From: a virus
Lineage: Duplodnaviria; Heunggongvirae; Uroviricota; Caudoviricetes
DNA length: 19,644 nt
Direction: 5' to 3' (one strand)
IMG/VR virus record: IMGVR_UViG_2648501186_000019
Span: 1 to 19,644 of that record
Below the pieces are notes generated by a model that was given only the letters and a program-made list of their open reading frames with translations, did no database searches and was not told the origin of the DNA. Both the position numbers and the translations under genes were made by a program. Positions within the stretch are counted from its first letter, which is position 1, and every line of letters starts with the position of its first letter. Positions 960 to 19,644 of this stretch are shown here, in pieces.

Positions 960-980
960 TCATTCAAAGAGGATTCAATT

Positions 981-1351: not shown

Positions 1352-1597
1352 ATGAAAAAGATTATCGCTGGTGTTGTTCTTGCTCTGGGTTTGGTTGGTG
1401 CTGCTAATGCGGATCAATATGTACAGGGTGATAGTGTCAAGCGTGCTGCCGTTGCACCTTCTTTAAATCAACTGTGTACTGAATTAGCACAGGTTGCCGG
1501 AGTTGGTGACGATGACGACTTTATTACTGCGTGTGTATGGAGTCATATCGAGGATATTAATAAACGTGATGCAAAACTAACTGGAAAGAAATATTAA
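1352..1597 (+). CDS. small secreted protein with a Sec-type signal peptide (81 aa)
   Basis: RBS AAAGAGGATTC nearly identical to that of the preceding gene. N-terminus MKKIIAGVVLALGLVGAANA|DQ resembles a signal peptidase I substrate; no lipobox Cys. The mature part has two Cys and a DDDD patch. Confidence 0.6.
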   Translation: MKKIIAGVVLALGLVGAANADQYVQGDSVKRAAVAPSLNQLCTELAQVAGVGDDDDFITACVWSHIEDINKRDAKLTGKKY

Positions 1598-1613
1598 TGA
1601 CTTACTAACCAAT

Positions 1614-1650
1614 GCCCCTATCGTTATAATACACGGTAGGGGCGTTTTTG
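1614..1650 (+). terminator. rho-independent terminator candidate upstream of the recombinase gene
   Basis: Stem GCCCCTATCG pairs with CGGTAGGGGC (one G-U pair) around a 10-nt loop containing TTATAAT, followed by GTTTTTGTTT. Confidence 0.55.
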
Positions 1651-1662
1651 TTTGGAAATGGT

Positions 1663-3342: not shown

Positions 3343-3380
3343 GCGGCCTAAATCGACGTATAACGAGCTAAAATAGTTAA

Positions 3381-3403
3381 GGGGTACAGATGTACCCCTT
3401 TTT
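3381..3403 (+). terminator. rho-independent terminator after the recombinase gene
   Basis: GGGGTAC (3381-3387), loop AGAT, GTACCCC (3392-3398), then TTTTT (3399-3403). Confidence 0.7.
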
Positions 3404-3437
3404 AATTTAATTGCGTTAGGCAGCGTAAGCAAGTTTC

Positions 3438-3474
3438 ATAGTAGTTTCCTCTAAAATAATAAGTTCACTACTAT
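3438..3474. repeat. inverted repeat ATAGTAGT / ACTACTAT with a 21-nt AT-rich spacer; CACTACT-like motif recurs at about 3492-3502 and 3559-3568
   Basis: Direct reading of the recombinase-helicase intergenic region; the two arms are exact reverse complements. Confidence 0.45.
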
Positions 3475-3618
3475 TTATCAGAGAAAATTGTCTTACTATT
3501 GCATTCTCTATCTGGATGTGGGTATAGGCGGGATTGAATACGGCAAAACTGAAACATTCCACTACTGCAATAAATCACTAAACAATATAAAGAATATTGC
3601 AAGTGTGGAGTGGAACTA

Positions 3619-5109: not shown

Positions 5110-5110
5110 C

Positions 5111-5140
5111 AAAAAAAGCGCCCACTAGAGGCGCTTTAAT
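5111..5140. terminator. bidirectional rho-independent terminator between convergent helicase and endolysin genes
   Basis: A-tract, stem AGCGCC (5117-5122), 7-nt loop, GGCGCT (5130-5135), T-rich tail; reads as hairpin plus U-tract on both strands. Confidence 0.6.
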
Positions 5141-5141
5141 T

Positions 5142-5495
5142 TTATCCATGCCAGCGTGATTTTTTCGATCTGGAATCGATATGCGTAAAGGTTTTATATT
5201 TGCCTAAGCCGTATTGAGTAGGATATTTCCCATCAAGATAAGCATGGACAATATCAGGAGAAATTCCTTTCACTGATATGTCGGCCGCACGGCCTCGAAC
5301 ATGATAGCTATTGGTTGCACCGCCTACATTCTTGTTATGAGTCGGACAACGGTTCCCGCTGTTAATAATTACTGGTTTCCCGAAGTGTTCGCGTACATCC
5401 TCAAGAATTACCAGCAGTTCAGCGTCGATAGTATCATAATCACATTTTCCGCATTTACATTTAAATTCCTTGCGAGAAAAATGCTTGCTTAACAT
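5142..5495 (-). CDS. endolysin, zinc peptidase M15 family (L-alanyl-D-glutamate peptidase / D-Ala-D-Ala carboxypeptidase-like), 117 aa
   Basis: H-x6-D zinc motif (SYHVRGRAADI) and downstream His (FTHID), as in Peptidase_M15 endolysins. ATG at 5495 has a strong AGGGGG Shine-Dalgarno sequence; the track start at 5531 is TTG. No signal peptide visible. Confidence 0.8.
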   Translation of the reverse strand: MLSKHFSRKEFKCKCGKCDYDTIDAELLVILEDVREHFGKPVIINSGNRCPTHNKNVGGATNSYHVRGRAADISVKGISPDIVHAYLDGKYPTQYGLGKYKTFTHIDSRSKKSRWHG

Positions 5496-5505
5496 ATTAC
5501 CCCCT

Positions 5506-5853
5506 TTAGATGTATTGCATAAGATACCCAATAAATCTGAGTCCCTTAATGTAATAAGGTGCTGTGCCTATGCATACCGCTCGTGCATCACCAATACAAT
5601 TGAAGTTGTAAGGGTTAACTACATCAATCTCCTGCCCTACACGGAAGCGGTATTTAGGACGTTTAGCGAGTGTCGCAACACAAAACACTAACCCGTTACC
5701 ATCATCGCGGATCATTTGCTTGAATTGTTTATGCTTTACTCTCTTCGCCTCGTAATCAAGTGTCATTGATTCAGGGCTAATGCCATTGATAAAAATACCG
5801 GAAAGCTGGTCGACCGGATAAGTAGGAAATTCAGTGAAAATATTTTTAGCCAT
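5506..5853 (-). CDS. hypothetical protein (115 aa), translationally coupled to the endolysin
   Basis: Strong GGGGGT Shine-Dalgarno sequence before ATG 5853; the stop is 10 nt before the endolysin ATG. No TM segment and no recognised motif; three Cys. Confidence 0.6.
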   Translation of the reverse strand: MAKNIFTEFPTYPVDQLSGIFINGISPESMTLDYEAKRVKHKQFKQMIRDDGNGLVFCVATLAKRPKYRFRVGQEIDVVNPYNFNCIGDARAVCIGTAPYYIKGLRFIGYLMQYI

Positions 5854-5891
5854 GTTATACCCCCATAAGATTCTATGAGGGTATTTATGGA

Positions 5892-6497
5892 TTAAACGAA
5901 GTTGATTTTACCCATGAAGTGCTTTTTCATCTTCTTCTGGATATTCTTCTTCATCGTTTTCTCATTATCTTTCCAACTACCCATGATGTTACTACGGTCT
6001 GTTTTCTTCAACACTGCAACAAGTCGCTTCCCTAGCTTTTTCTTGTTCTTCATGTCGGCTTTAACGGATGGATCGAGAAGCAGTATTTTACCAGTCTTAG
6101 ATTTTGTGGTTACATACTTCCCTATTTTCTTACCGTTTCTGAGTTGTGGAATGTTACCAAACTGGTTAGTTCGGTCATCAGTTACAGGAACAAATTTCTC
6201 AATATTATTACCACCTTCAAAGTAATATTTTAAGTATTTTTCCTGATTCTTCATGATGAAAACACTATGGTAAGACGTTTTACCGCTTGAGCGTATCCGG
6301 TTGTATGAATTGACCGCTTTCTGTGTGAACTTGGTCGGTCGATCTATCCTTGAATTGACTTTCTTCTGCAACTTTACCCGCTCATCTATGACCGCTAAAC
6401 CCAAATCCCTATGAAAGCTATTACTAGCTTTCTGTTTCCAACTCTTGATATCTTTTTTTACTTTATCAATATTGGATGTGATTATTGGATTAGCCAT
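5892..6497 (-). CDS. highly basic lysine-rich protein (201 aa), function unknown
   Basis: AGGGGG Shine-Dalgarno sequence; ATG 6497 lies 1 nt after the upstream stop. Very Lys-rich with a poly-basic C-terminus (KKNIQKKMKKHFMGK). Confidence 0.6.
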   Translation of the reverse strand: MANPIITSNIDKVKKDIKSWKQKASNSFHRDLGLAVIDERVKLQKKVNSRIDRPTKFTQKAVNSYNRIRSSGKTSYHSVFIMKNQEKYLKYYFEGGNNIEKFVPVTDDRTNQFGNIPQLRNGKKIGKYVTTKSKTGKILLLDPSVKADMKNKKKLGKRLVAVLKKTDRSNIMGSWKDNEKTMKKNIQKKMKKHFMGKINFV

Positions 6498-6498
6498 G

Positions 6499-6669
6499 TT
6501 AGCCCCCTAATAACGAAAAGACCCCCGCCAGTGTCCTTAGCAATTGTTCATCCACGGTCATAGCCGGGAGTTCAAGCCCAAAGGACGTTAGCAGAGGTCT
6601 AATTGCTACGTTATAAGTGAGGGCGACAATCAAGAGATAACCAAAATATTTCTTAAGTTTATTCTTCAT
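6499..6669 (-). CDS. small membrane protein (56 aa from ATG 6669); holin-like or immunity candidate
   Basis: AAGGGG Shine-Dalgarno sequence 7 nt before ATG 6669. Sequence MKNKLKKYFGYLLIVALTYNVAIRPLL... has a basic N-terminus and one or two hydrophobic helices; no lipobox. Confidence 0.45.
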   Translation of the reverse strand: MKNKLKKYFGYLLIVALTYNVAIRPLLTSFGLELPAMTVDEQLLRTLAGVFSLLGG

Positions 6670-6688
6670 ATATTCACCCCTTTTATTA

Positions 6689-6967
6689 TTATTTTTGTCT
6701 GAGTAAATCGATAACTTGGTCAAATTTGGCGTCCATCGCAACCACTTTCTTCTCTATACCGTGAAGGGTTTGTTCCATGCGATAAACTCTCTCGGCGATC
6801 TGGTCATGGTTACTTTGCATTGTTTCAAACTTCTGATTAAACAATGCATCATTGGACTCTAATTTCGACAATCTATTTTCTGTTGCTATTTGATTTCGGT
6901 GAAGTCTCCATAATCCACCACAAATTAAGGCGATAACACCGATACCGCCATATATAATTTCAGTCAT
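6689..6967 (-). CDS. single-pass membrane protein with a coiled-coil domain (92 aa)
   Basis: N-terminal TM segment (IIYGGIGVIALICGGLW) followed by a charged helical region. GGGGG Shine-Dalgarno sequence before ATG 6967. First gene after the terminator downstream of the gpJ-like gene. Confidence 0.6.
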   Translation of the reverse strand: MTEIIYGGIGVIALICGGLWRLHRNQIATENRLSKLESNDALFNQKFETMQSNHDQIAERVYRMEQTLHGIEKKVVAMDAKFDQVIDLLRQK

Positions 6968-7011
6968 TACGCCCCCGATATTTTTATATAGTTTAATGGC
7001 AAAATTATTTA

Positions 7012-7054
7012 GATAAAAATAATCCCGCCTAACTCAAAAGAATTAAGCGGGATT
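7012..7054 (-). terminator. rho-independent terminator after the gpJ-like gene (- strand)
   Basis: 8-bp stem AATCCCGC / GCGGGATT (7021-7028 with 7047-7054), followed on the - strand by a U-rich run (AUUUUUAUCU). Confidence 0.6.
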
Positions 7055-7073
7055 TATTATTAAAAATTAAATT

Positions 7074-10000
7074 TTAAGAAACAGTAATACCAGTAGTGGC
7101 TTTTTTAGTTACCATTACTGTTAAATCACTGATCCATGTGCTAGGCGTCCAGTTGTTGATTGCGCTTGATTGCACTTCAAAGGTCAAGGTCACAGCACCT
7201 TTACCCGCTGGCATATCAATAACACCTGAGTAAAGACCAGTATTACCGCCATACGCCCTATTATACAACTCTGACCCATTCTTACGAACAATCAGGCGAC
7301 AGGTGTCGTAATAGGTATTATTGTTCGACCCTTCACGCGCTCGCAATCCACCAAAACTAACAGCCGGAATAACGATTTGACGATCGAACTTGTGATCATC
7401 TTCAACGCGAACAGTGACCGTACCCTGTGGATAACCAGCATAACCATTATCAACGTTAACATCACGATGCGGGAACTTACGTCCAATCACCTTAACGAAA
7501 TCACCCTTAACCTGAGTAGCTTCAAGCATACCCTTAATAACACAGCTAGAGTTAATCGTGACGTTGTTCAGAGTACCAGAATCAGCAGTGATATTACCTT
7601 TAACGGTTGCATTCATGAACGTAGCGGACCCGTTCTTGTTGATATGCCATCCGGTCGATCCGTTCCAGTTGGAAGACTGGATATAGTTACCGATTTTAGC
7701 GTTATCAATTGCACCGTTTACGATCTTCGCGTTAGTGATTGCCCCGTCCTGAATCTTCGCGCTGTTAATTGCAGCATTGCCGATTTTAGCCGTGGTAATC
7801 GCCGCATCATTAATCTGGGCTGTACCAATTGCAGCATTACGAATCATCGCATTATCGAGATAAACCTTGTTACCTTCGATACCAAACGGGCATACTTCCG
7901 ATCCGTTCTGTGGAGCTACCGCGATTTTATCGGCATTAAAGATGATTCTCGTCGGTTGCGCCGGATCGTTGGTTGCGCTCATGTGAATACCAGCCACGCG
8001 ACCATCTGCATTAACCGCTAGATTGTATTTGCTGTTAATGGTTCCTTTCAAAGCATCGATTTTTACATCTGCTTCCTGATTCACACCAGCAATCTTGCCA
8101 TCCATTTCTACCCGAACTTGATCAATCTTACTTGCGCTTGCTGCCTCACTGGTAGCAATAGCTTGTTTCAGGGTAGTAGCAGATGCGCTGACTTCGGATT
8201 TAATATCGCCTTTCAGTTCAGCTTTAACCTGATCAATCTTAGTGGAGCTAGCTTGCTCGCTGGTAGCAATCAGACTCTTTAAGGTATTGGCTGAGGCTTG
8301 GACCGTCTGCCCTGTTTCGGTAGTGATTTGCTTATGCATTGCATCAATTTTAGCATCGGCATTAGCGCCAGCTTGAGCAATAGCATCCGCGATAGTTTCA
8401 TCTAAGCGGTCTTGTAAACCAATCAGGTCTTCCAGTGCTTCTTTGTCCTGATCGTCCCAGCTAATGGTAGATTTCATTTGCATGAAATACGGTTCAGACC
8501 AAACAGCATCATCCATACCGAAAATATCGTAGTGAGCACCACGGATATAATAATCACCGTCAGCAATATCAAAGGAAGTATGGCTAACACTATTCGTGCT
8601 TACTGCCCTTGCATCGGAGAACGTGTTATCGGTTGCATACTGGATGATTGACCCTGCATAATCATGTTCTACGTCATCTGCCCAGCTAACAAACGCAGTA
8701 TTAAAGCCACCACGCGCACTAAAACCTTTCATTGGCTTATGTTGTGGGTTGATAGCCACTAAACGCGCTGGGGCGCTCTCTGAGTTGTTATATCCCTTAG
8801 CTGATACTTCTACCGTCAGTTGACGCGAAAGGCCGTTAAACTGGTTCATATCAAGCGTATAAGTCCATGATTCAGGATCGCGGGTACGGTACTGAATAGA
8901 CTTACCAGCCTTGTTAGTCACCTTGATAATGTATGCTTCAAACAGGTCACTAAACTTGTTAGTTTCACCGTTGATCTCAACATCTAAGCCTTGCTGGTTA
9001 TCCCATTCGATAATCAGATCATTACCTTCGAAAGTTCCTGGCGTGCTACCCTGATTTTTGATTCGAATAACCGGAGTCGGCAATTCATAGGTAACAGTCG
9101 GATTCTGGTTAATCAGTTCTACCCAATCGGATCGCGCGATGATACCGAAAGCACAAACTCGGTAATCATAAGAGCGATCTTTCGCCAGTGCATTGACACT
9201 GAAAATTTGCTGTGAAGTCTGACCGAGCTTAATCCAGTTAGGTGATCCGCTTACACGGTAATCAATCTGGAAGCCATAACGGTTAAAATCTTCCGGTGCA
9301 TCCCATGTCAAAGTAACATTTTTACCGTAAATCGTCTCGCCAGTTGCCTTAATTCTGAAATTAGTAGGCTTCTGTACTGTCATTGAATCCGGTAAACCAC
9401 TTGGTCTATTGTCCGGTTTAGCCGCATAATCCAGATCTGTGTAAATCTGAGAATTATATTCTGTGGCGGTGATAGACAAAATACCAGCAATACCAGAATC
9501 AATGCTACGCTCAATAGAGATAATACGCCAAAGTGAATTATTCAGTTTCAATTCATCGTGGGTAACGCTGATAACGTCCCAAACTTCCGCGCTGAATGCA
9601 TCGGTAGTAGTGAAGTTGATAACCTGAGTAATACGAGATTTATTTCGTTCAATGCTCGCTAATTTGTCAATCTGGTTTTCATCTTTAACAAAGCGATATT
9701 CTACGTCTTTAGCAATAATGCGCCCATCTTGACGGATAGTAGCATCATTTTCAGCATCAGCCGGATAACGTAGCATTTGCTCTGAATAGTCTAAAGATGG
9801 TTCCTGATAGATTGCGTTAATGGTATTGAAATAACCGTTAGTGCCACCTGTTTTCAGGTTAACTTTCCCCATCATTATATTGTCTTCATTGAAGGTATGT
9901 TTAACAATATCAGGAGCATCCAGTTTCAGCGTAATACGTCCAAAGGATTCAAACATTACCCCGCCGAAAGTCTGCATCAATCCGGTCAAGTTCTCTTTAA

Positions 10001-10856
10001 AGCTGGCGTTCGGATCACATGCACCGTTAGAGTGCAAATTCATCTGGCGAACTTGAGAACGTACTTTCAGGAATGAATCAACGTTAATGTTTTCAATTGG
10101 TACTGATAAACCATATTTTTCATTTGTTAGGTAGTGGAAAATCTGATCCACGCCGTTAGTGCTAGCCTCAATAGCATTGGTTTCAAGGTTACGAATCTTT
10201 AATCCGCAAACGTCTACTGCTACCTGGCTATTTGGCTGGAGAATATCAACACCAGCAGCAAGAGATTTGTCATCACGACGTAACACAATACACATGGTTG
10301 CAATGCCGTTACCCTTGTAAGCATCGGTCCAGTCTGAGCCTAAATGAGTTTTTGCCAGTGACAATGCGGTGTTAGGATTCTTACCCGTGCGGAACTCGAC
10401 TTCTAACACTTTACGGTATTCTTCTTTAATGTTGCCCTTATCGAGAATGCCATCACGGATCGTCATGTTTCGACCAATCAGCACGTTTTTATTATCGATG
10501 AATAGTGCTTTGTAATGGTCAATTTCACCCTCGGCAATTGCGAAGATTTGCACTAACTTATTGTTTTCTTTCTTAGAAATTGCTTTGTAAACACAGATAG
10601 CACCAGTTCGAGTAGTACCAAAAATAACTGGTAATACTGTTTTAGGATCGTTTGATGTTCCTAGTGTCACTGCGTTATCTGGGCTTTGTACCTTCGGTGT
10701 TTTCGGTGCGCCTACAGTGGAAGCAATCAAAGACAATGCACCAGCACCAATACCGATAGCAACAGCCGCTAATGTTGAAATTGCCGCCACGGAAGCAGCA
10801 GCCATCCCAGCCGACGCACCAGCAATAACCGCGCCGACCAATACTTCTACGCCCAT
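7074..10856 (-). CDS. tail tip central fibre / host specificity protein (gpJ-like) with an N-terminal gpI-like domain and a lambda-J-type C-terminal receptor-binding domain (1260 aa)
   Basis: ATG 10856 with a GGGGG Shine-Dalgarno sequence, overlapping the upstream stop. Residues 1-50 are a Gly/Ala-rich hydrophobic segment, followed by APKTPK...VLPVIFG..R.G, reminiscent of the lambda gpI C-terminal half. The middle has FN3-like segments, a duplicated helical segment and 8-residue (A)IxNAKI repeats. The C-terminus (DDHKFDRQIVIP...VIDMPAGKG...VMVTKKATTGITVS) follows the pattern of the lambda J C-terminal domain as I recall it. Confidence 0.9.
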   Translation of the reverse strand: MGVEVLVGAVIAGASAGMAAASVAAISTLAAVAIGIGAGALSLIASTVGAPKTPKVQSPDNAVTLGTSNDPKTVLPVIFGTTRTGAICVYKAISKKENNKLVQIFAIAEGEIDHYKALFIDNKNVLIGRNMTIRDGILDKGNIKEEYRKVLEVEFRTGKNPNTALSLAKTHLGSDWTDAYKGNGIATMCIVLRRDDKSLAAGVDILQPNSQVAVDVCGLKIRNLETNAIEASTNGVDQIFHYLTNEKYGLSVPIENINVDSFLKVRSQVRQMNLHSNGACDPNASFKENLTGLMQTFGGVMFESFGRITLKLDAPDIVKHTFNEDNIMMGKVNLKTGGTNGYFNTINAIYQEPSLDYSEQMLRYPADAENDATIRQDGRIIAKDVEYRFVKDENQIDKLASIERNKSRITQVINFTTTDAFSAEVWDVISVTHDELKLNNSLWRIISIERSIDSGIAGILSITATEYNSQIYTDLDYAAKPDNRPSGLPDSMTVQKPTNFRIKATGETIYGKNVTLTWDAPEDFNRYGFQIDYRVSGSPNWIKLGQTSQQIFSVNALAKDRSYDYRVCAFGIIARSDWVELINQNPTVTYELPTPVIRIKNQGSTPGTFEGNDLIIEWDNQQGLDVEINGETNKFSDLFEAYIIKVTNKAGKSIQYRTRDPESWTYTLDMNQFNGLSRQLTVEVSAKGYNNSESAPARLVAINPQHKPMKGFSARGGFNTAFVSWADDVEHDYAGSIIQYATDNTFSDARAVSTNSVSHTSFDIADGDYYIRGAHYDIFGMDDAVWSEPYFMQMKSTISWDDQDKEALEDLIGLQDRLDETIADAIAQAGANADAKIDAMHKQITTETGQTVQASANTLKSLIATSEQASSTKIDQVKAELKGDIKSEVSASATTLKQAIATSEAASASKIDQVRVEMDGKIAGVNQEADVKIDALKGTINSKYNLAVNADGRVAGIHMSATNDPAQPTRIIFNADKIAVAPQNGSEVCPFGIEGNKVYLDNAMIRNAAIGTAQINDAAITTAKIGNAAINSAKIQDGAITNAKIVNGAIDNAKIGNYIQSSNWNGSTGWHINKNGSATFMNATVKGNITADSGTLNNVTINSSCVIKGMLEATQVKGDFVKVIGRKFPHRDVNVDNGYAGYPQGTVTVRVEDDHKFDRQIVIPAVSFGGLRAREGSNNNTYYDTCRLIVRKNGSELYNRAYGGNTGLYSGVIDMPAGKGAVTLTFEVQSSAINNWTPSTWISDLTVMVTKKATTGITVS
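7692..7859 (-). repeat. imperfect 24-nt (8-codon) tandem repeats inside the gpJ-like gene
   Basis: Protein-level repeats NAAIGTAQI / NDAAITTAKI / GNAAINSAKI / QDGAITNAKI / VNGAIDNAKI and matching DNA periodicity. Confidence 0.5.
8117..8330 (-). repeat. roughly 110-nt imperfect tandem duplication inside the gpJ-like gene (helical shaft segment)
   Basis: DNA blocks at about 8117-8227 and 8228-8330 share TGATCAATCTTA...GCTTGCT..CTGGTAGCAAT. Protein segments TLKSLIATSEQASSTKIDQVKAELKGDIKSEV and TLKQAIATSEAASASKIDQVRVEMDGKIAG are clear paralogues. Confidence 0.45.
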
Positions 10857-11275
10857 AGATCACCCCCAAAGCGATAAGCATCGTTATAATCAATTTCGTA
10901 AATCGGCTTGGTCGTCCAGATTCCATCTTCGGTAACGAGTCCATAGCCAGAATAATAAGGAGTCACGGAGTAATACTTACGGTTTCCTAATTTGTGATCG
11001 CGGATCAATAGATCGCCGTCCTGTAAATCATCAGTAACTAATTTAAAATGTTCTTTGATAGGCTGGAGGATATTGGTATATCCGCTAAGTTCTTTACAGA
11101 CTTTCAAGCCTTCTTCTTTCGTTGAATATTTTTTATAAAGAGAATTATATAGGTCAGTTCCAGCGAGAATATCGATGATCTTACATGCAATTAAATTGCA
11201 ATCATTCTCGCCTTGAACGAACTCCTGACCTACTAATGAATTGATGTAATCAGTGATAAGCCTAGTTTTTAGCAT
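10847..11275 (-). CDS. tail tip assembly protein, gpK-like with NlpC/P60-type Cys/His residues (about 142 aa)
   Basis: ATG 11275 preceded by GGAGG at 8-nt spacing. Motif GENDCNLIAC and downstream His (IRDHKLG) are consistent with a papain-like NlpC/P60 fold. Position between the gpL-like and gpJ-like genes. The track ORF extends to 11521 but overlaps the upstream gene. Confidence 0.5.
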   Translation of the reverse strand: MLKTRLITDYINSLVGQEFVQGENDCNLIACKIIDILAGTDLYNSLYKKYSTKEEGLKVCKELSGYTNILQPIKEHFKLVTDDLQDGDLLIRDHKLGNRKYYSVTPYYSGYGLVTEDGIWTTKPIYEIDYNDAYRFGGDLWA

Positions 11276-11324
11276 GTTGAATACCTCCATGCTGTTATTT
11301 ACTAGGCTTAGGGAGAAGGGATTA

Positions 11325-11978
11325 TTACTTTTTAGAGCTAAACCATTTTGATTCCGCGTTCCAGCGACCCGCCCTTGAGAAGAATAGATCGTTCTCGTTT
11401 CCTGGGTATGAGCGATGAATACCATCAGAAGCATGACTACGAGCGTTTTTATCGAGAACTTCCCAGATACTATTAAGCTGGAACTCTGATTCGTTGGTAC
11501 ATTCTTTATCCTTGTAGTCAATAGAAATATTGATGTTATCGACTACACCACGGAAAACAGGGTAAGTGGTTTCAACCTTGCCCGTGTTGGGGTTCAAGAA
11601 TACCATTTCGATTTTCACATCTGATTTATCGAATTGCTTGTTTCGAATGAGAGTAATGTATTCTTCTCGAACGTTCGAAACGTTAACGGTGATCCCGTTG
11701 TTGTTGATTTCTTTTTCTTCGGAGTTGGAAGAAATATCAAGAAAGTCACCGCTAGCGAGATAGGTAAATCCGTTATAGTCTAAGTCAAAGTACCCATCTG
11801 TAAGCCGTAGAACGTCCCCTGACGCGGTAATCACTTCGATAATGTGAAACATCGATCCGGTGGAAAAAAGCTGCGGTAGCGTCAATCTGGTAACTTCCTG
11901 CCCCGTCTGGTCGTTGTATACCTCGATAAAGTCAATATTGGTACAGAGTTTATTAAATGCGTCTTGAATAGTAGCCAT
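11325..11978 (-). CDS. minor tail protein, gpL-like (217 aa)
   Basis: Synteny (TMP, M, L, K, J) and N-terminal and mid-region resemblance to lambda gpL as recalled. Start ATG overlaps the upstream stop (TAATG). Lacks the C-terminal Cys cluster of lambda L. Confidence 0.55.
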   Translation of the reverse strand: MATIQDAFNKLCTNIDFIEVYNDQTGQEVTRLTLPQLFSTGSMFHIIEVITASGDVLRLTDGYFDLDYNGFTYLASGDFLDISSNSEEKEINNNGITVNVSNVREEYITLIRNKQFDKSDVKIEMVFLNPNTGKVETTYPVFRGVVDNINISIDYKDKECTNESEFQLNSIWEVLDKNARSHASDGIHRSYPGNENDLFFSRAGRWNAESKWFSSKK

Positions 11979-12538
11979 TATACATTCTCCACTAATTCAA
12001 ATTTCATCTTGCCAATCTGGGCGATGTTCCAATCGATGTTTTCAGTAGTGAGAAGAAATTCACCTTCAACGTTCTGATACTTGATCACCTCACCCGCTAG
12101 GACGTTCTGACGCAAGTTAGGGAAGAGTTTCATTTCACCACCTGATTTCACGTCTTCGGTGATCGTGTAGATTTTCTTGTGGTTCTCAAACTGGATGATA
12201 GTTCCCGCTTTCAGTGTTCCGGTGAAGTTGGAGAGTCTCACCTTACGCCCACCGCGAGCAGTACCAGCAGCAGCCGTAACCATCTGGCGTACATCACCTG
12301 TATATTTTGAAAAGTAAGACAGCGGAACAGTGAACGGACGACCAAAAAGGTGACGTGCTACAAATTCTTTTACTTCGTTAATATCCTGAGCCATGAAATT
12401 AGCTGTAAATTCTGCTTCATAGTAATGAATACCAGTAAAGCGACGCTGGAACTTACCAGAAATGGATTGCGCCTTGAAGAAAGGTTGTTTTGATTTAAGA
12501 GTAAAATCTGTGATTTTAATATTCTTGGATTTGAACAT
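11978..12538 (-). CDS. minor tail protein, gpM-like N-terminal region with a C-terminal extension (about 186 aa)
   Basis: First gene after the tape measure. ATG around 12538 is preceded by GGGGG inside the hairpin; the track start at 12574 is a GTG lying within the hairpin stem. Weak resemblance to lambda gpM in the first 100 residues. Confidence 0.5.
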   Translation of the reverse strand: MFKSKNIKITDFTLKSKQPFFKAQSISGKFQRRFTGIHYYEAEFTANFMAQDINEVKEFVARHLFGRPFTVPLSYFSKYTGDVRQMVTAAAGTARGGRKVRLSNFTGTLKAGTIIQFENHKKIYTITEDVKSGGEMKLFPNLRQNVLAGEVIKYQNVEGEFLLTTENIDWNIAQIGKMKFELVENV

Positions 12539-12541
12539 AGA

Positions 12542-12588
12542 AAAAGCCCCCATAGTTTTATGATTATTTATCACTATGGGGGCTTTTA
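12542..12588 (-). terminator. perfect 14-bp inverted repeat hairpin between the tape measure and gpM-like genes; attenuator/terminator candidate
   Basis: AAAAGCCCCCATAG ... CTATGGGGGCTTTT with an 18-nt AT-rich loop, an A-tract on one side and a T-tract on the other. The loop contains GATAAATA. Coordinates are +/-1. Confidence 0.5.
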
Positions 12589-12589
12589 A

Positions 12590-15109
12590 TTACATTCTAC
12601 GACGCTGGGCGTCTTCTACTGCTTGGGCAACAAGTTTCGGATGGCGTTTAATCGCTTCCATTACCATTGCATCAGAGCTATTAACGTTACCGCTAATTTG
12701 CAAAGGAGCATGTACCTCAATCGGCTGAGAGTTACCAGTGTTACCGGATTTCTGGTTAGCTAAGAAGTCTTTCAGATCGCCGTTAGTACGATCATCAACA
12801 ACTCGTTCCCCTTTCTGTAACAGCCATGTACCCTCACGCGGGATGTTATCAATACCGTCATGCGCCATACCGTCAACAGAGATTGATTTCATCTGCGCAA
12901 CACGAGCGATTGCAGAAGCATAGCTAGCAGCACCCATCGCAACACCCAACGGTCCAGGATACTTAGCCATAGCCTTAGTTGCGGCTTCGTGTGCGTTCAT
13001 CATACCCATTGCGATAGAAACGCCTTTCTGTGCTGCAAATAGTCCCTTAGTAACAGCGTTATTCTCTAAGCCAAATGCTTGTAACGCCTCACCAAATCCA
13101 CCGAACATATCCTGTGTATCTTGCAAGCGCATGTTATTGTATTTTAAGTCAATTTCACGCATTTTCTTTTGATGCGCTTCATTGAGTGCTTGCAGTGCTT
13201 TAAATTGTTCAGCTTGAGGCAGTTTATCAATGTTGGCTTTATGGGTAGCGTAATCAGCATTAGCATTATCAACATCAACGGCTTTCATCTCGTCAATAGT
13301 CTGATCACGTTCACCGAAGGAGTTAGCTAGACCACGAGATTTGATTTCTTGTAGTCCATCGGTCGCACCAGTACGGCCTTTGTAAGCATCTTCAATACGC
13401 TGTTTTTCTGCCAGATAATCCGCTAATTTGATGTTTTTATTCTGGTAGTTTTCTTCCAGATCTTTAAGGCTTTGTTCATAAACCTGTTTAGAAGCAGCCA
13501 ACATTTGCAGGGCTTCCATTGGATTTGCACCTAATACAGATTTACGGAAGTTTTCCGCGTTAGCATTAATTAGCTGGCGTCGTTTCTCTTCGTATTGTTC
13601 TTGCGTGATAATACCCTGTTTAAGAGCGTTATCTAACTTAGCAAGGTTTTCGGTAATCTGACGGTTAGAAGACGCCACAGCAGCTTGTGACGAGCTATAC
13701 AAAGAGATATTGATGGCCTTCAAATCATTGTAGGCTTTTTCTCTTAATTTTTTGGCTTCGTCTGCGGCTTTCTTCGCTGCATCTTTAGCTTTCTTGGTTT
13801 CTGGACAATCTGCGGCTGAATGCGCACCTTGCTTACATACAGGGCAAAGAGATTGAACACGGCGTTTATTCTCTTCTTCCTGTTTCTTTTTCAGTTCATC
13901 GGCTTGTGTTTGCAGTTCAGCAGCTTTGCGTTTGCGTTCTTGTTCTGCTAGATCTTCGAAGCTGGTTGCAGCACCGTTACTAACACCGCTTGCGATGGCT
14001 TCCTCTACCGCATCACCTAATGCTTTAGCACCTTTCTTGATGTTATCGGTAGTCAATGCTGGGATTTCAAAATCAAGAAAATCGGCATCAGCACCAAACC
14101 AGCCAGCAATAGTTTTACCACCCTTGCGGATCGCATTCTGTACTTTAGCGATAATCTCGGCTAGTTTGTTGTACAGATTAATCATTGTTTCCTGTACAGT
14201 TTTAACCGTCTTGATTATCGGGTTAATTGCTGTAAGTAGAGCATCCTTAGCTTTCTGGAATAACGGCGGGAGATTTTCGGTCACAAACTTACTAATAGCT
14301 TTCATACTCAAATAGAAAGTAGTATTAGTAAAATCCTTGTTGAAATAATCATAGATTAAGTTGAATCCTTTCGGGAGGAACGAAAATACATCCGCGAAAG
14401 CACCCATTACCGTTTTACCTAAAGCGGTCAAATTAGAACTTGCGTTTGAATACGCGGTCGCTGTTTCTTCTGAGACATAAGCGGCTTGTTGTTGGAGCTT
14501 AACTTGATGTTCCCAATAGTCGTTTGATTCAGACAAAGCACCGATCATCTTACTGGAATCAGAAGCAATTCGTTCCATACCCGCGATAATTTCAGAATGG
14601 CTTAGTCCTGCGGCTTTAGCTTGGTAATACCACATTTCAGCAGCTTTGCGACCGCCTTCTGGATCATCGGTAAAGGCTGCATAATCCTTGATATCGCCTT
14701 TGATCATTTTAAGCGCGGCTTGAAATTCCCCTGTACCGTCTCGCCATGCTTCCCCTAATTTCTCGGCTGCATCCTTGTTAATATCAAGAACTTTTTCGGC
14801 ATTCAGACCAAAGCCACTATAGACTTTTTCCATCTTCTGAATTTGTTCGATATTAACACCAAATTCTTTCGACATATTGGCATATTCGATAGCCATTTTT
14901 GCGCCACCAGCAGCAAGGGCAGTAAGAGCACCCAAAGCAGCACCAGCAGCCATCCCCAATGGACCCAGCTTACCTAACAATCCACTGATAGAGCCAGTTA
15001 AATTACCGACACCACCGGAGGCAAGACCATCAAGAATACCACTTGCTTTATCTGCGGCAGATTCAAGACCACCAGTAACGCCAGTAATATCAAATCTTAA
15101 TTCTGACAT
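12590..15109 (-). CDS. tail tape measure protein (839 aa)
   Basis: Position directly after the chaperone pair; length comparable to lambda gpH; long helical charged repeats and Gly/Ala-rich hydrophobic segments. Strong AAGAGG Shine-Dalgarno sequence before ATG 15109. Confidence 0.85.
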   Translation of the reverse strand: MSELRFDITGVTGGLESAADKASGILDGLASGGVGNLTGSISGLLGKLGPLGMAAGAALGALTALAAGGAKMAIEYANMSKEFGVNIEQIQKMEKVYSGFGLNAEKVLDINKDAAEKLGEAWRDGTGEFQAALKMIKGDIKDYAAFTDDPEGGRKAAEMWYYQAKAAGLSHSEIIAGMERIASDSSKMIGALSESNDYWEHQVKLQQQAAYVSEETATAYSNASSNLTALGKTVMGAFADVFSFLPKGFNLIYDYFNKDFTNTTFYLSMKAISKFVTENLPPLFQKAKDALLTAINPIIKTVKTVQETMINLYNKLAEIIAKVQNAIRKGGKTIAGWFGADADFLDFEIPALTTDNIKKGAKALGDAVEEAIASGVSNGAATSFEDLAEQERKRKAAELQTQADELKKKQEEENKRRVQSLCPVCKQGAHSAADCPETKKAKDAAKKAADEAKKLREKAYNDLKAINISLYSSSQAAVASSNRQITENLAKLDNALKQGIITQEQYEEKRRQLINANAENFRKSVLGANPMEALQMLAASKQVYEQSLKDLEENYQNKNIKLADYLAEKQRIEDAYKGRTGATDGLQEIKSRGLANSFGERDQTIDEMKAVDVDNANADYATHKANIDKLPQAEQFKALQALNEAHQKKMREIDLKYNNMRLQDTQDMFGGFGEALQAFGLENNAVTKGLFAAQKGVSIAMGMMNAHEAATKAMAKYPGPLGVAMGAASYASAIARVAQMKSISVDGMAHDGIDNIPREGTWLLQKGERVVDDRTNGDLKDFLANQKSGNTGNSQPIEVHAPLQISGNVNSSDAMVMEAIKRHPKLVAQAVEDAQRRRM

Positions 15110-15131
15110 ATTAACCTCTTATTCTTATTAT

Positions 15132-15163
15132 ATAAAAAAGCCCCACCGATAAAGGCAGGGCTT
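15132..15163 (-). terminator. rho-independent terminator/attenuator between chaperone and tape measure genes; copy 1 of a repeated hairpin
   Basis: On the - strand: AAGCCCTGCC, loop, GGTGGGGCTT (two G-U pairs), then UUUUUU. Near-identical to the element at 16413-16443. Confidence 0.55.
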
Positions 15164-15172
15164 ATAATTCAA

Positions 15173-15557
15173 TTAATCTGCGGTCGCCCTTAACTTATTG
15201 ACTAACGCCGGATCAAACATGCTCAACATTGCAGCTTTGCGATCTTCTTCTTTCTTACGCTCGATTTCTTCCAGTTCTTCTTTAGTCTTGAAGATTTTCT
15301 CTTCTTTGATTAACTGGAATTGGCTAGGTTTAATTTTATTAGCCATTTCTTTAGTCATTCCCTGAGAAGTCATATAAAGGGAATATTGAAGCATAGCGTT
15401 TTGCATGTCATGAAATGCGGGGGATTGTGGTTCTAAGTAAGTGTCGAAAATATGCAGTGACCAAAAAAGTGTCACTGGCATATTATCCATTTCATCTTTA
15501 CTCAATCCACGCCGCATCATCTGGCGGAAGTAGAAAGTTAAGAGCGGGTTTACTTTA
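15173..15557 (-). CDS. frameshift extension of the tail assembly chaperone (GT-like product), -1 frame relative to 15550-15858
   Basis: The -1 frame is open from 15571 through the G stop, and its first ATG (15520) has no Shine-Dalgarno sequence. The 21-nt overlap contains GGTAAAGTAA (15550-15559), where a P-site Lys slip from AAG to AAA is possible at the stop codon. Confidence 0.45.
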
Positions 15558-15858
15558 CCGATTCTTCTACCTTACTCGGTTCCGGCATCATAGAAGCCAG
15601 AGCAACCAGACCGATCAATTGTGCTTTAACAGTTGTGTAAAGGGCTTTAACTTGTTTAATATTAGTGAAAACTGGTTTACCGCTTTCATCTTCGATACAT
15701 TTCAGAATAGTACGTTCGTCGCGGTCTTCTTTATTGTTATTCTGAATGTGCTCGTTAAATTCCTGTACGCTCATCGGACGGGCATAAAATTTAAAGCCGT
15801 TGATTTCCATTGCTTCGCGTTTCGGGGAAAGAGCTTTCATTAAATCGTTGATATTCAT
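15550..15858 (-). CDS. tail assembly chaperone (gpG-like), 102 aa
   Basis: Small acidic protein immediately upstream of the tape measure with an overlapping -1 ORF. GAGGAAA Shine-Dalgarno sequence before ATG 15858. Confidence 0.6.
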   Translation of the reverse strand: MNINDLMKALSPKREAMEINGFKFYARPMSVQEFNEHIQNNNKEDRDERTILKCIEDESGKPVFTNIKQVKALYTTVKAQLIGLVALASMMPEPSKVEESVK

Positions 15859-15880
15859 TTTTGTTTCCTCATTAACAATG

Positions 15881-15897
15881 ATTACGATATATTTATG
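15881..15897 (-). promoter_or_regulatory. CATAAATA box plus TATCGTAAT; second copy of the 15-nt motif seen at 945-959
   Basis: The - strand reads CATAAATATATCGTAATCATT; the box ends 31 nt upstream of ATG 15858 (30 nt at the + strand copy). It overlaps the stop codon of the 168-aa gene. Confidence 0.35.
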
Positions 15898-16399
15898 TGA
15901 TCTTTAAACTCTGCTTAGTGCCAGTCTTCTTAATGTTGGTAAGGAAAGCAGCCGGAGGATTGCTTAACCAATAGTAATGAAAACCACTTTGCATACTGTT
16001 ATAAGGAACAGTGACAGTAGCACCACCCAAATTAACGGTTATATTCCCCGCTCTACCGTTCTGGAGATATACAGCCATAGTAGGAGTACCGCCATTGAAT
16101 TGACCAACGATAACGCCAATCAGACGCCCTACGCCCACGTTTTCGGGGTTCTCCATAGATCCTTTACCGCGCATGTCAGTTACTGGATAGTTTGAAGCAG
16201 TTACACCCCAGTTATTACCCAATGAAGTAGACCACGATGCAGTAGCAACAACCGTATCCATACCACGACCACACATAGCACTCATGTTAGCTGGGCGACT
16301 AACCTTTAATGCGTTCATTGCTGCGGTCATCCATCGTTGACCAGTTACAGAAACAGCAGATGACCCGACCCAGCCGGGCTTATTAACGACATTTGCCAT
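15893..16399 (-). CDS. hypothetical tail-module protein (168 aa), Gly/Ser/Thr/Asn-rich
   Basis: GGAG Shine-Dalgarno sequence 9 nt before ATG 16399, just downstream of the terminator hairpin. Composition suggests a beta-rich structural protein; could alternatively be the tube subunit. Confidence 0.55.
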   Translation of the reverse strand: MANVVNKPGWVGSSAVSVTGQRWMTAAMNALKVSRPANMSAMCGRGMDTVVATASWSTSLGNNWGVTASNYPVTDMRGKGSMENPENVGVGRLIGVIVGQFNGGTPTMAVYLQNGRAGNITVNLGGATVTVPYNSMQSGFHYYWLSNPPAAFLTNIKKTGTKQSLKIT

Positions 16400-16412
16400 T
16401 TTGATTACTCCA

Positions 16413-16443
16413 ATAAAAAAGCCCCACCATTAAGGCAGGGCTT
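16413..16443 (-). terminator. rho-independent terminator after the major tail gene region; copy 2 of the repeated hairpin
   Basis: The + strand reads AAAAAAGCCCCACCATTAAGGCAGGGCTT, against AAAAAAGCCCCACCGATAAAGGCAGGGCTT at 15132-15163. The stem is fully paired only in the - strand RNA (G-U pairs). Confidence 0.55.
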
Positions 16444-16573
16444 AAAATTAATTCTTAGCCTTGCGGCCTCGTTTTGCTGTGGCTTTCGCCGTAACTTCTT
16501 CTACTTCTGGAATCACCACCGCTTCATGTTCCGGCTGTGGTTCCGGTTCTATTAAAGGAAGTTCTTCGTTAGT

Positions 16574-17050
16574 TCATCCACCAACAGTAAAGATCTTCTG
16601 TGGAACGGGCTTGCCATCAACCGCAAACGTCAGTTCACGCTGTACGACGCTCTCGTCATCACCAGTCAGATTGACTTTAGAAATGAATCCGTTAAATGCA
16701 GTACGAATACCAGTCTGCTTATCCGCTGATACGTAATACTCTACTTTAATCTGGATTCGAGTGCCGTCTTCGGCAGCTTTAATGAGCTTCTCGTGTACCG
16801 CATCACCCGGAATGTAGTTGATCACCAGTTCCAGATCAGGAACGTTCAGTTTACCAACCAGCTTACGGTTATACTGAGAAGAGAACGACTTCACCTCAAC
16901 CGTGCCCCTCTCAATGGAGTAGGAAGGCCAACCAGCACACTCTTTAATTTCTTCGTATGCTTCATCAGCAAGATCGGTGTTAGTGGTATCAGCGTGATAG
17001 AACAGACTTACCAAACCACCAGTAAAAATATCTTTGAATTGTTGAGACAT
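16574..17050 (-). CDS. major tail (tube) protein candidate, 158 aa
   Basis: Strong AAGGGG Shine-Dalgarno sequence; located upstream of the chaperones and tape measure; size and beta-rich sequence typical of small siphovirus tube proteins. Ends in TGA, followed in the same frame by 41 open codons (16451-16573). Confidence 0.55.
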   Translation of the reverse strand: MSQQFKDIFTGGLVSLFYHADTTNTDLADEAYEEIKECAGWPSYSIERGTVEVKSFSSQYNRKLVGKLNVPDLELVINYIPGDAVHEKLIKAAEDGTRIQIKVEYYVSADKQTGIRTAFNGFISKVNLTGDDESVVQRELTFAVDGKPVPQKIFTVGG

Positions 17051-17080
17051 ATAATTACCCCTTAATTAAAATTGTTATTA

Positions 17081-17099
17081 CGGGGGAACTAGTCCCCCG
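17081..17099. terminator. GC hairpin CGGGGG-AACTAGT-CCCCCG between the fibre gene and the major tail gene; T-tract follows on the + strand
   Basis: 6-bp G/C stem with a 7-nt loop. The + strand continues ACTTTTATTATTT; on the - strand the U-run is interrupted. May be a bidirectional terminator or a processing/stability hairpin. Confidence 0.4.
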
Positions 17100-17106
17100 A
17101 CTTTTA

Positions 17107-19644
17107 TTATTTAGTTGCTTTCAGTTCGGCTAATTCAGCTTTAGTTTCGGCAAGTTCTTTAGCCATAGCATCAAACTTAGCGGTCATTTCCTGCATTGCT
17201 TTGATGATTAAAGCATTGACAGCAGAGTTAGAAATAGTCTTGATTGCTTCTGGATGTTCTGGATCTTCGGTGGATTGAATACCTACTGCTTCCGGCAATA
17301 CTTTTTCCAGATCCTGAGCAATAATACCTACTTCGCGTTTAATTACTGTGTCATCAGAAAGAGATTTAACTTTATCGTAGGTGTAGACTTTCAGGGAGTT
17401 TACTTTCTCTAATGCGCCGTCCTGTAATTCTTCCTTGTTAATTTTCAAACGGGAGTCGGAGCGAATGTAAACATCGTTAAAGCTACCGTTACGACCTGCG
17501 GTAAAGTCACCAGAGGCGTTAAAGTCAAAAGTTGCATCGTGTACGTGCATACGCACCATAGCATTACCGATAGTACCGCTAGGAACATGTACACCCATTG
17601 CTGCGATATGATATTTACCTTGATGGGTTGCTTTCCATACGTTATGAGCGGAATCGGTTGATTGTTGACAGTCGACCTGAATACCAGAAGCACGATCACG
17701 CCAGCTAGCCCAACTACCACCAGCAACGCTACCACGAATAAGACCATTACCGCCACCGGATACAGTGCCCGTTTCAAGGTGAATCATCTTACCGCCGAAT
17801 TTCCAGACTTCGGTTTGTTTCTCACCACGGAAGCGAATAACACCAGCGTCATCGCAATACATCAAGCCCAACTCTAAACCGTTTGGATCTCTAAACCAGA
17901 TGTGCTTATTGCCAGCGCGTTTAAACGAAATATCAGCACCAGTTGTTGTGATATTGCTAGCAACGTTTAGACTACCCGCCATAGAGAACAGAATAGGTCC
18001 AGTGCCACCCTGAGTACGTTCAGTATACCAGTGATAACTTGTAGCATCCTTACATTCAAAAACCTGTTTGCGTTGCTCGTTACCCCATGTGTGTAAGGTA
18101 AATTGAGACTGCGACCCCCGATTAGCATCAAATGCAATTTCACCAGATTCTACACGTACAAAGCCTTTAAAACGTGCAGTAATATTTCCGGTTTCATCAT
18201 TGCGTTCAGTAGAGAAATGTATACCTGTTGGGTCTTCTATTTGAAGAATGTTGTGTCGTCCACTGGCACTATCACCCAAATGGTTTATTTTCATGAAACC
18301 GCTAGCACCCTGACGCCCACTAGAAAAATGAAGAAATCCTTTTTCTACATAAACATCACCAGCAAAACGAGCAGCACGACTTGCACGTTCTAAGACTAAT
18401 GCACCTTCGTTACCATCACCACCCAAAGTAACATTACCGCTACCAAGATGGTAAATGAACGGACGATAGCCGTTCCAACTACCAAATTTATCATTTTCGG
18501 CAGTAGACAGAAGATATACGTTTTGACCATCATTACGCCAGAATGCACCATAGTTACCGTAAATCATACGGAATGCATCACTGTTAGCAGCTACATATTG
18601 ACCATTGGTGTATACAATTTTGGTAGCACCTGTGCTTAAAGATACTTGACCACTTGCTTCTAATTTAACAAAGTTTTTACCTTCGTCACTATACCATTGA
18701 AAATCGTTAGTATCTGTAGAACCAAAACCAAACCAGCCTTGACGTTTATTAGCCCCGTTTCGCTGATCCATATATTCAAAATAGTTACTACGACCAGTAG
18801 GACGCCACATACGAATCGCGTTATTGCCTTGCAGATGAAGTCTATCGACAAATAAACCATCACTACCAACAATTTTTAATACTTCTTTTTGGTCGGTGGA
18901 ACCAGTAGCCAAACGATACACATCACCTTGAACAGTTTCATGCCATATTGTTTCCGCCGCACGACTGCGGAATTTACGCATATATTTTTTATTGTTGTCT
19001 GGTACGTTATTAAGGCTCACAATATCATAGGTTGCTTGTGAGTTATTATCAAACATCAACGTTCCGGCTTTGTTTTCGGTGTTGAACATCGTAATAACAC
19101 GAGCATCGGTAACACCAACAGAAGGTTTAACGAGAGTTAATTCAGGAACATCATGTACTGTCAGAGTAACGCCATCAGTTTTACCGTATTCGACAATAAC
19201 GTTATCGGTGTAACGACCGTAGTTAACGTAGATATCGTAGTTATCACCGGAAGTATTAACCGCAAATACTTGATGAGTATTTTTAGAATTTCGACGATAC
19301 GCCGCAATACTAACGCCTTTCGGGTTATTGTTACCGGAACGGATGACAATTTCTACAAAGTCAACCTGATCATAAGAGTTAACGTTATAACCATTACCAC
19401 CGAAGATACGAAGCATTACCATTCGACCATTCTGTGGGATCGTAGCGGTTGCGATCTTGAAGTATCCACGAGTAGCATCACCAGAAGGAACGGTCATTCT
19501 AACGTTCTTGATGAACATCTTATCAACTTCGGCTTTGGTGTATGCACCAATCTCGCCAGGAGTCGGCTTATCACCTTCGTGATACATCTTATAGCTAAAG
19601 TTCTTCTGTCCTTCTCTATCAAAACCATAGGTTTCAACACGAGA
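17107..19644 (-). CDS. tail or neck fibre protein with a C-terminal intramolecular chaperone (peptidase S74-like) domain; 5'-partial, open to the window edge
   Basis: The frame stays open to 19644 (SRVETYGFDREGQKNFSYK precedes the first Met). The C-terminus (...YIRSDSRLKINKEELQDGALEKVNSLKVYTYDK...VGIIAQDLEKVLPEAV...AELKATK) matches the autoproteolytic chaperone domain of T5 pb1-type L-shaped fibres and endosialidases. The upstream body is Gly/Asn/Thr-rich, beta-type. Confidence 0.85.
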   Translation of the reverse strand, partial: SRVETYGFDREGQKNFSYKMYHEGDKPTPGEIGAYTKAEVDKMFIKNVRMTVPSGDATRGYFKIATATIPQNGRMVMLRIFGGNGYNVNSYDQVDFVEIVIRSGNNNPKGVSIAAYRRNSKNTHQVFAVNTSGDNYDIYVNYGRYTDNVIVEYGKTDGVTLTVHDVPELTLVKPSVGVTDARVITMFNTENKAGTLMFDNNSQATYDIVSLNNVPDNNKKYMRKFRSRAAETIWHETVQGDVYRLATGSTDQKEVLKIVGSDGLFVDRLHLQGNNAIRMWRPTGRSNYFEYMDQRNGANKRQGWFGFGSTDTNDFQWYSDEGKNFVKLEASGQVSLSTGATKIVYTNGQYVAANSDAFRMIYGNYGAFWRNDGQNVYLLSTAENDKFGSWNGYRPFIYHLGSGNVTLGGDGNEGALVLERASRAARFAGDVYVEKGFLHFSSGRQGASGFMKINHLGDSASGRHNILQIEDPTGIHFSTERNDETGNITARFKGFVRVESGEIAFDANRGSQSQFTLHTWGNEQRKQVFECKDATSYHWYTERTQGGTGPILFSMAGSLNVASNITTTGADISFKRAGNKHIWFRDPNGLELGLMYCDDAGVIRFRGEKQTEVWKFGGKMIHLETGTVSGGGNGLIRGSVAGGSWASWRDRASGIQVDCQQSTDSAHNVWKATHQGKYHIAAMGVHVPSGTIGNAMVRMHVHDATFDFNASGDFTAGRNGSFNDVYIRSDSRLKINKEELQDGALEKVNSLKVYTYDKVKSLSDDTVIKREVGIIAQDLEKVLPEAVGIQSTEDPEHPEAIKTISNSAVNALIIKAMQEMTAKFDAMAKELAETKAELAELKATK

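Follow-up and report, generated by a model that had tools for sequence, protein, structure and literature searches.

A conserved in-frame UGA and a putative read-through extension in the tail tube gene of a temperate siphovirus of Escherichia coli

Introduction

The textbook case of stop-codon read-through is that of phage Qβ, whose stop is followed by A (UGA ACA), and the tail and head genes of DNA phages make their long and short forms by frameshifting. In Qβ (Qubevirus), a leaky UGA is occasionally read as tryptophan, so that a minor structural protein with a C-terminal extension, A1, is built into the virion (PMC8067240). In phage SPP1 (gp17.1*) and the Listeria phages PSA, A118 and A500, the major tail gene is recoded near its 3' end into a short and a long product, of which the long one displays an extra C-terminal part on the tube (PMC5009743). 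Alphaviruses and several plant virus genera combine a leaky UGA with an extended stem-loop behind it, and reduced synonymous variation downstream of the stop was the clue to these cases (PMC3159437). Here we describe a tail tube gene of a temperate double-stranded DNA siphovirus that ends in TGA and is followed in the same frame by 41 open codons. The gene lies in a stretch of 19,644 nucleotides (nt), positions 1 to 19,644 of the IMG/VR record IMGVR_UViG_2648501186_000019, and this whole stretch is called the window. Judging from sequence comparison, the extension is likely to be translated by read-through of the UGA.

The closest case by mechanism is A1 of Qβ, and the closest by biological logic are the frameshift-derived long tube forms of SPP1 and the Listeria phages. 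With A1 our locus shares the host, the proposed mechanism and the setting, a major structural gene with a UGA that would be leaky. Qβ, however, is a single-stranded RNA phage in which a folded extension of ~200 amino acids (aa) is attached to the capsid coat and is required for infectivity, whereas here a temperate DNA phage would carry a probably unstructured extension of 33-41 aa on its tail tube, with a candidate RNA hairpin behind the stop. With SPP1 and the Listeria phages it would share two products, a common tube domain and an extra C-terminal part; an earlier note on this DNA, made from the sequence alone, had drawn a parallel with frameshift-derived extensions of siphovirus tube proteins, and it holds in position and logic (PMC5009743). 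Their longer products arise by a +1 (or -1) frameshift and end in a folded domain resembling an immunoglobulin (Ig) or fibronectin type III (FN3) domain, whereas the extension described here keeps the frame of the tube gene beyond a stop codon and consists of a short charged tail. The tube-domain fold of lambda gpV recurs in the 158-aa core (Foldseek E ~3e-6), with the extension at the equivalent C-terminus; unlike in our locus, every gpV subunit carries an Ig-like C-terminal domain without recoding, and sequence identity is 11-14%. As in alphaviruses and plant viruses, the shape of the predicted hairpin is conserved and synonymous divergence is low, whereas read-through in those viruses involves eukaryotic ribosomes and eRF1. 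To our knowledge, cases of natural, conserved and purposeful read-through of a stop codon are very rare among bacteria and the DNA viruses that infect them, and we know of no bacterial hairpin that stimulates it. Our searches of the open-access literature turned up no tail tube gene described as undergoing stop-codon read-through, which does not by itself prove newness.

Results

The tube gene, its stop codon and the open frame behind it

Unless stated otherwise, all features lie on the minus strand. The tail tube (major tail) core is an open reading frame (ORF) of 158 codons (17050..16577), whose ATG at 17050 is preceded by AAGGGG and which ends in QKIFTVGG. It matches phrog_158, 'major tail protein', with E 4.2e-19 over residues 7-149. 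Pfam by itself was inconclusive on tube identity (Phage_TTP_11/12), as all of its tail-tube matches stayed under the curated cut-offs (PF16461, 21.3 bits against 26.1; PF16460, 20.7 against 28.4; PF06199, cut-off 23.8). The AlphaFold2 (AF2) model of the core, with a predicted local distance difference test score (pLDDT) of 70.7, a predicted template modelling score (pTM) of 0.68 and two long loops of low confidence, showed the fold expected of a tube, a β-sandwich with a flanking helix that is common to Hcp. The top Foldseek matches in the PDB were the tubes of YDC107, lambda gpV, NF5, 80alpha and SPP1 together with Hcp, with E down to 2.7e-6 and a template modelling (TM) score of ~0.55. Considering also the position of the gene, the 158-aa ORF is a siphovirus tail tube protein similar to lambda gpV.

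The ORF is closed by an in-frame TGA (16576..16574), the proposed leaky stop, and the frame then continues for 41 sense codons, TNEELPLIEPEPQPEHEAVVIPEVEEVTAKATAKRGRKAKN (16573..16451), up to a TAA (16450..16448). An intrinsic terminator-like hairpin with a T run (16411..16443; 10-bp stem, 16443..16419) follows 5 nt past this TAA. This arrangement, with the tube protein ending in IFTVGG, had been described in the earlier note and was confirmed throughout. The extension begins with an acidic, proline-rich linker (TNEELPLIEPEPQPEHEA), passes into VVIPEVEEV and finishes with a basic end (TAKATAKRGRKAKN). Over the same 123 nt, the two alternative frames are interrupted by 4 and 3 stops. An open run of 41 codons had been given a chance of 0.1-0.15; the value that we recomputed from the base composition (GC 41.6%, p_stop 0.0585) is near to it at 0.084. 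With a probability of this size, the window alone is not beyond chance, and the comparison with relatives is needed for that.

According to the earlier note, the extension also lacks its own start. We found no in-frame ATG, GTG or TTG and no Shine-Dalgarno sequence in the first 18 codons of the extension, so the statement stands for this half, and it needs amending for codons 19-20, where an in-frame GTG-GTG occurs without a convincing Shine-Dalgarno sequence. We rejected an ATG that overlaps the stop (GG-ATG-A), which is out of frame and is missing in variants with GCT, TCT or GGT before the stop. Among the gene ends in the window, 19 out of 20 are TAA, the tube gene being the sole one with TGA. 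In E. coli, genes that end in TGA commonly have a back-up stop nearby, and the tube gene shows the opposite arrangement (PMC11126739). Several of the 19 window genes that end in TAA have a second TAA within 0-3 codons.

Conservation of the stop and the frame in relatives

Relatives were gathered via the tube protein through a protein database search, contig look-ups, IMG/VR, metagenomes and complete E. coli genomes, and the sample was therefore not selected on the extension. The tube protein is at least 78% identical to that of the window in 46 loci from IMG/VR, Logan, ENA, metagenomes and complete E. coli genomes, which comprise 23 distinct stop-to-stop sequences. All 46 keep the stop in its context, TGA-ACT-WWC-GAA-GAA-C (16561..16576 in the window), and behind it an open frame of 33, 36, 39, 40 or 41 codons, while the proportion of synonymous differences (pS) among their tube genes reaches 0.62. 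The 13 nt after the stop are conserved, and the base directly 3' of TGA is A throughout (46/46), as in Qβ. The codon before the stop varies between GGA, GGT, GCT and TCT, and encodes Gly, Ala or Ser only; small C-terminal residues are reported by Isaksson's group to weaken termination at UGA-A. None of the variants has a sense codon or TAA in place of TGA. The earlier note had looked to related phages for a decision, naming a closed or shifted downstream frame as evidence against read-through: stop and frame are kept in every one of these loci with in-frame indels only, and we found no relative that has the extension in a closed or shifted frame. More distant relatives, with tube proteins 68% identical or less (E. 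coli, Salmonella, Edwardsiella, Providencia and phage DCP80), lack any extension and have TAA-TAA or TAA-T directly before the terminator.

The close relatives reside as prophages of ~35 kb in the E. coli chromosome. Of 5426 complete genomes, 20 contain such a prophage, which in strain PI7 (NZ_CP074033, ~753-783 kb) sits within hicB; strains STEC1575 and ETEC1738 are lysogens as well. When five E. coli records in RefSeq were inspected, the 158-aa protein was annotated and the extension was unannotated (0/5). One public metagenome entry, P0001 (L002, 41-637), is a 198-aa 'protein' with W at the position of the stop. It was rejected as an uninterrupted fusion, as the DNA has TGA and the W is an artefact of the gene caller (an alternative-code call on a short contig), which by accident equals the product expected from read-through.

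The extension is kept in three downstream contexts, in which gp38 follows directly (the window), a gene for a 422-aa protein is inserted before gp38 (L003-L009), or gp38 is missing (L066). The terminator behind the extension is either the hairpin of the window type or an ancestral one (AGCCATCCTTCGGGGTGGCTTTTTT) at the same place, and the L003 group has kept the ancestral terminator 3' of the extension. Since the extension and gp38 occur together in 42/45 loci and the terminator matches Krischvirus, we considered whether the extension is the leftover 3' end of a donor gene that was brought in by insertion of gp38. This was ruled out by L066 (ERZ781272 NODE-77, 1975-2180), in which TGA and a 40-codon extension precede the ancestral terminator (AGCCATCCTTCGGGGTGGC-T run), with the chaperone gene next in line. 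As such, the extension does not depend on the acquisition of gp38.

A scan of IMG/VR for the DNA pattern of the extension core returned only contigs already known from the tube protein, and the extension is therefore attached to no other gene and always accompanied by the TGA. At the protein level, the extension by itself had no match in a word-based search, and no relative turned up when one genome per species was scanned with a protein pattern. In the phage collection, megablast of the region gave no match, and no isolated phage is close. The only blastn matches were to the terminator and the start of gp38 in Krischvirus, leaving the extension unmatched, and tblastn of the read-through protein against phages returned only DCP80 (41% identity, TAA stop, no extension) and Vibrio phages.

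Substitution patterns in the extension

The extensions fall into type 1, TNEELP(LI/LP)EPEPQPEHEAVVIPEVEEVTAKATAKRGRKAKN, type 2, TFEEQPQPI(I/P/Q)DEPTVIPEVEVVMEKSTAKRGRK(SRK), and recombinants between both. Variants differ by indels of 6, 15, 9 and 3 nt, every one a multiple of three. In three comparisons of types, the ratio of non-synonymous to synonymous divergence (pN/pS) in frame 0 was 0.46, 0.47 and 0.21, against 0.63-1.78 in frames +1 and +2, and the synonymous excess in frame 0 gave Fisher p = 0.011 and 0.021. As peptides, TxEE, VIPExE and AKRGRK are retained even at sites of nucleotide difference, and by hand count the stretch VIPEVE...AKRGRK has 8 synonymous and 4 non-synonymous differences between the types.

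The N-terminal half is constrained as well. Within type 1 it shows ~7 synonymous to ~7 non-synonymous differences, counted by hand from the alignments, at a site ratio of ~1:3. Since this half is constrained and has no in-frame start, it can be reached only through the UGA. The earlier reading of the extension as a read-through product is thus supported, at the level of sequence, by the conserved stop and frame together with a synonymous bias that is confined to frame 0.

Distant members of the family have short constitutive C-terminal tails that end in ARK, GRK or SRK, so a basic-tipped C-terminal tail is recurrent among these tube proteins. One tube protein from Edwardsiella ends in NVIPEAVAAKEK, which MAFFT aligns with VVIPEVEEVTAK of the extension (compare VIPEVEEV...AKRGRK). 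In the E. coli clade, the basic-tipped tail is lengthened and set behind a stop. In the AF2 model of the 198-aa read-through product of a relative, the extension was disordered (pLDDT ~40), a result that is uninformative on function as the alignment has no depth there.

A predicted hairpin downstream of the stop

A spacer of 10 nt directly 3' of the stop separates the UGA from a long imperfect RNA hairpin (16563..16493) that was predicted by minimum free energy (MFE) folding and is a candidate stimulator of read-through. It was the MFE structure in 10/10 variants tested, with identical start and end nucleotides, a folding free energy (dG) of -12 to -22 kcal/mol and z of -1.5 to -3.1. The closing stem pairs AACUUC with GAAGUU in type 1 and AACAACC with GGUUGUU in type 2, which includes two compensatory changes from U-A to A-U, and it was also recovered by RNAalifold. 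The sequences of the inner helices differ between the types. Over 21 distinct sequences, 91.9% of the pairing cells pair, against 21-46% when the partners are slid. The arms of the hairpin also encode conserved residues. Judging from these predictions, the hairpin may raise read-through, although we hold this part of the proposal only tentatively.

Further downstream, a mini-hairpin with a GNRA loop, GGC-GAAA-GCC (16481..16490), is paired in 100% of cells. It is GGA-GAAA-UCC in type 2, with one compensatory pair, and GGU-GAAA-GCC, with a G-U pair, in one variant. In type 1, a second hairpin with a GCAA loop lies ~12 nt downstream of the mini-hairpin. A search of Rfam at E <= 1 returned no family, SECIS (the selenocysteine insertion sequence) included, and only two matches at chance level.

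Discussion

How the extension would be made and used

UGA is the leakiest stop in E. coli and is mainly read as tryptophan; in a K-12 reporter, read-through amounts to ~2% at 37 C and to ~4% at 25 C, and some contexts and stresses give far higher levels (PMC10570021, PMC11126739). At the weak stop UGA-A of the tube gene, most ribosomes would terminate and release the 158-aa tube subunit. In a minority, the UGA would be decoded by a near-cognate tRNA, which in E. coli would almost always be tRNA-Trp, so that tryptophan is probably inserted. These ribosomes would translate 41 more codons and stop at the TAA before the terminator, giving a minor tube form of ~200 aa. The hairpin, which starts 10 nt past the UGA, may lift read-through over the background of the host, and we infer that the resulting level is probably a useful one. 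The tube model aligns only to the tube part, ~155 residues, of the 245-residue lambda gpV, so the remainder of gpV is external, and the extension would likewise leave the tube fold at its C-terminus and project outside the tube.

The gpH protein of lambda has 853 aa and its tail has ~32 hexameric rings. By analogy, the 839-aa tape measure encoded in the window would correspond to a tube of ~190 subunits, and read-through of 1-5% would place ~2-10 extended subunits on each tail. Our best guess for its role is that the few copies on each tail decorate the tube surface or serve in docking, for instance through electrostatic contacts to fibre components or to the surface of the cell. In its fullest form, the proposal is that a temperate double-stranded DNA phage uses programmed, structure-stimulated read-through on bacterial ribosomes, with a hairpin that lifts tryptophan insertion well over background and thereby sets a defined few charged-tail subunits per tail; this form we would put at somewhat below even chances.

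Several observations weigh against translation by read-through, or weaken the evidence for it. The extended tube form is a prediction from sequence. The invariance of the TGA is weak when taken alone, as variation affects 69% of the comparable twofold sites in the tube gene and the probability of seeing no TAA variant under neutrality is ~0.3. The extension has a pooled pN/pS of 0.46, which exceeds the 0.19 of the tube core. In essence, the material consists of two haplotype families and their recombinants, and with so few haplotypes only a small number of independent events underlies the signals from covariation and from pN/pS. The observed covariation was reached by 0/500 shuffles, a control that is not a probability, and the recombinant L016/L075 breaks the closing stem and pairs otherwise. 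Within type 1, the nucleotide sequence varies less in the extension than in most of the tube gene; this fits overlapping constraints on RNA and protein, and could also come from recent recombination or from a function at the RNA level. Finally, the extension is short, predicted to be disordered and without a detectable homologue, and its function is a guess.

Some of these points also suit an untranslated structured RNA behind the TGA, a 3' untranslated region acting in stability, processing or attenuation, whose open frame would be a by-product and whose read-through would be functionless noise. The hairpin is predicted in all variants, with compensatory pairs, and both the low nucleotide diversity of type 1 and the disordered, homologue-free peptide agree with such a role. 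However, the frame is open in 23/23 variants with indels that are all multiples of three, the synonymous bias is restricted to frame 0, and TxEE, VIPExE and AKRGRK persist despite nucleotide differences. The extension also resembles the constitutive C-terminal tails of distant tube proteins, and an untranslated RNA has no need for TGA instead of the TAA used by the 19 other genes. RNA structure and coding are compatible with each other, and we regard an RNA role without translation as unlikely. If the tube protein had been longer in an ancestor and had suffered a nonsense mutation, the extension could instead be a decaying remnant whose codons have yet to degrade. Such an origin agrees with the in-frame C-terminal tails or domains in this family and in tube proteins generally, and with the phrog_158 profiles, which are longer than the 158-aa tube protein. 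It is very unlikely nonetheless, because the stop and the open frame persist at a tube-gene pS of 0.5-0.6 and in three gene contexts, with pN/pS below 1, in-frame indels only and no reversion to sense or change to TAA.

The in-frame GTG raises the alternative that only a C-terminal mini-protein of ~22 aa is made, starting from GTG-ATT/ATC-CCA-GAA. This GTG is present in both types, and VIPEVE...AKRGRK after it is the best conserved stretch of the extension. Neither type has a convincing Shine-Dalgarno sequence, though, and the GTG lies inside the predicted hairpin; moreover, the stretch before it is also constrained in frame (in-frame indels, no stops and, by hand count, a synonymous excess), which makes a mini-protein less probable still. 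That a hairpin follows the UGA could also suggest decoding as selenocysteine, with the hairpin as a bacterial SECIS element, and E. coli possesses the machinery for it. In the fdhF and fdnG elements, the apical stem-loop that binds SelB must sit ~11 nt from the UGA, whereas the apex here is 35-40 nt away; the apical loops differ between the types, Rfam gave no match above noise, and a structural tail has no redox role. We give selenocysteine next to no weight. A recoded genetic code was rejected, as the standard code leaves ORFs of 1260, 839 and 826 aa uninterrupted, and so was a suppressor tRNA of the phage, as there is no tRNA gene in the window or in the complete prophage L050.

Read-through of a conserved UGA in the tube gene, if it occurs as proposed, would add a second recoding route to long and short tube forms. 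Some 130 nt would then provide a compact natural test case for how stop context and mRNA structure set read-through on bacterial ribosomes, and the siphovirus tube would have a natural site for low-copy peptide display. Genome annotation pipelines miss the extension. Because UGA read-through varies with temperature and nutrients (PMC10570021, PMC11126739), the decoration of progeny tails would, if the proposal is true, report the physiological state of the host that produced them.

Gene neighbourhood

On the minus strand, the gene order is a gp37-like fibre gene, the tube gene with its extension, a gp38-like adhesin gene, a G-like chaperone gene, a T-like ORF, the gene for the 839-aa tape measure, a distal tail gene, a GpJ-like tip gene and an M15 endolysin gene. 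The opposite strand carries a UvsW-like helicase gene and a large serine recombinase gene. The tube gene is thus placed between a fibre gene and an adhesin gene, and in relatives without gp38 the chaperone gene directly follows the tube gene. The gp38-like tail fibre adhesin gene (15893..16399) was identified by PF21721 Gp38_N (E 2e-15) and phrog_1121. In the loci closest to the window (L003, 6711-7979, and also L004-L009; tube 98% identical), the gene for the 422-aa protein lies between the terminator of the extension and gp38. Its domains are CapR, a treble-clef zinc-finger and T5orf172, and it may be a mobile nuclease or a regulator.

The gp37-like fibre gene (17184-19644) has 77-84% nucleotide identity to the gene for the distal subunit of the long tail fibre of virulent Krischvirus (RB49-like) myoviruses, and the terminator together with the 5' end of the gp38-like gene (16316-16458) is 72-83% identical to the gp38 region of Krischvirus. 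Such identity points to T4-like phages and a temperate siphovirus having recently exchanged modules for receptor binding.

The two tail chaperone ORFs, at 15858..15550 and 15520..15173, are arranged in the classic G/GT manner. The T-like ORF encodes 115 aa with a weak match to PF06223. Its frame, -1 with respect to the G-like ORF, is already open at 15571 and overlaps the last 7 codons of G (15571-15550). A candidate slip site, G GUA AAG, lies directly 5' of the TAA of the G-like ORF, and the chaperone pair may be the place of a second recoding event in the same tail module.

The UvsW-like helicase (3610-5109, plus strand; 499 aa) was recognised by PF21241 UvsW_N with E 2e-34. It shares ~80% nucleotide identity with a 'putative helicase' of Krischvirus and adjoins the large serine recombinase (1648-3342). 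In the PI7 prophage, the region that matches the helicase locus contains no gene of the size of the helicase.

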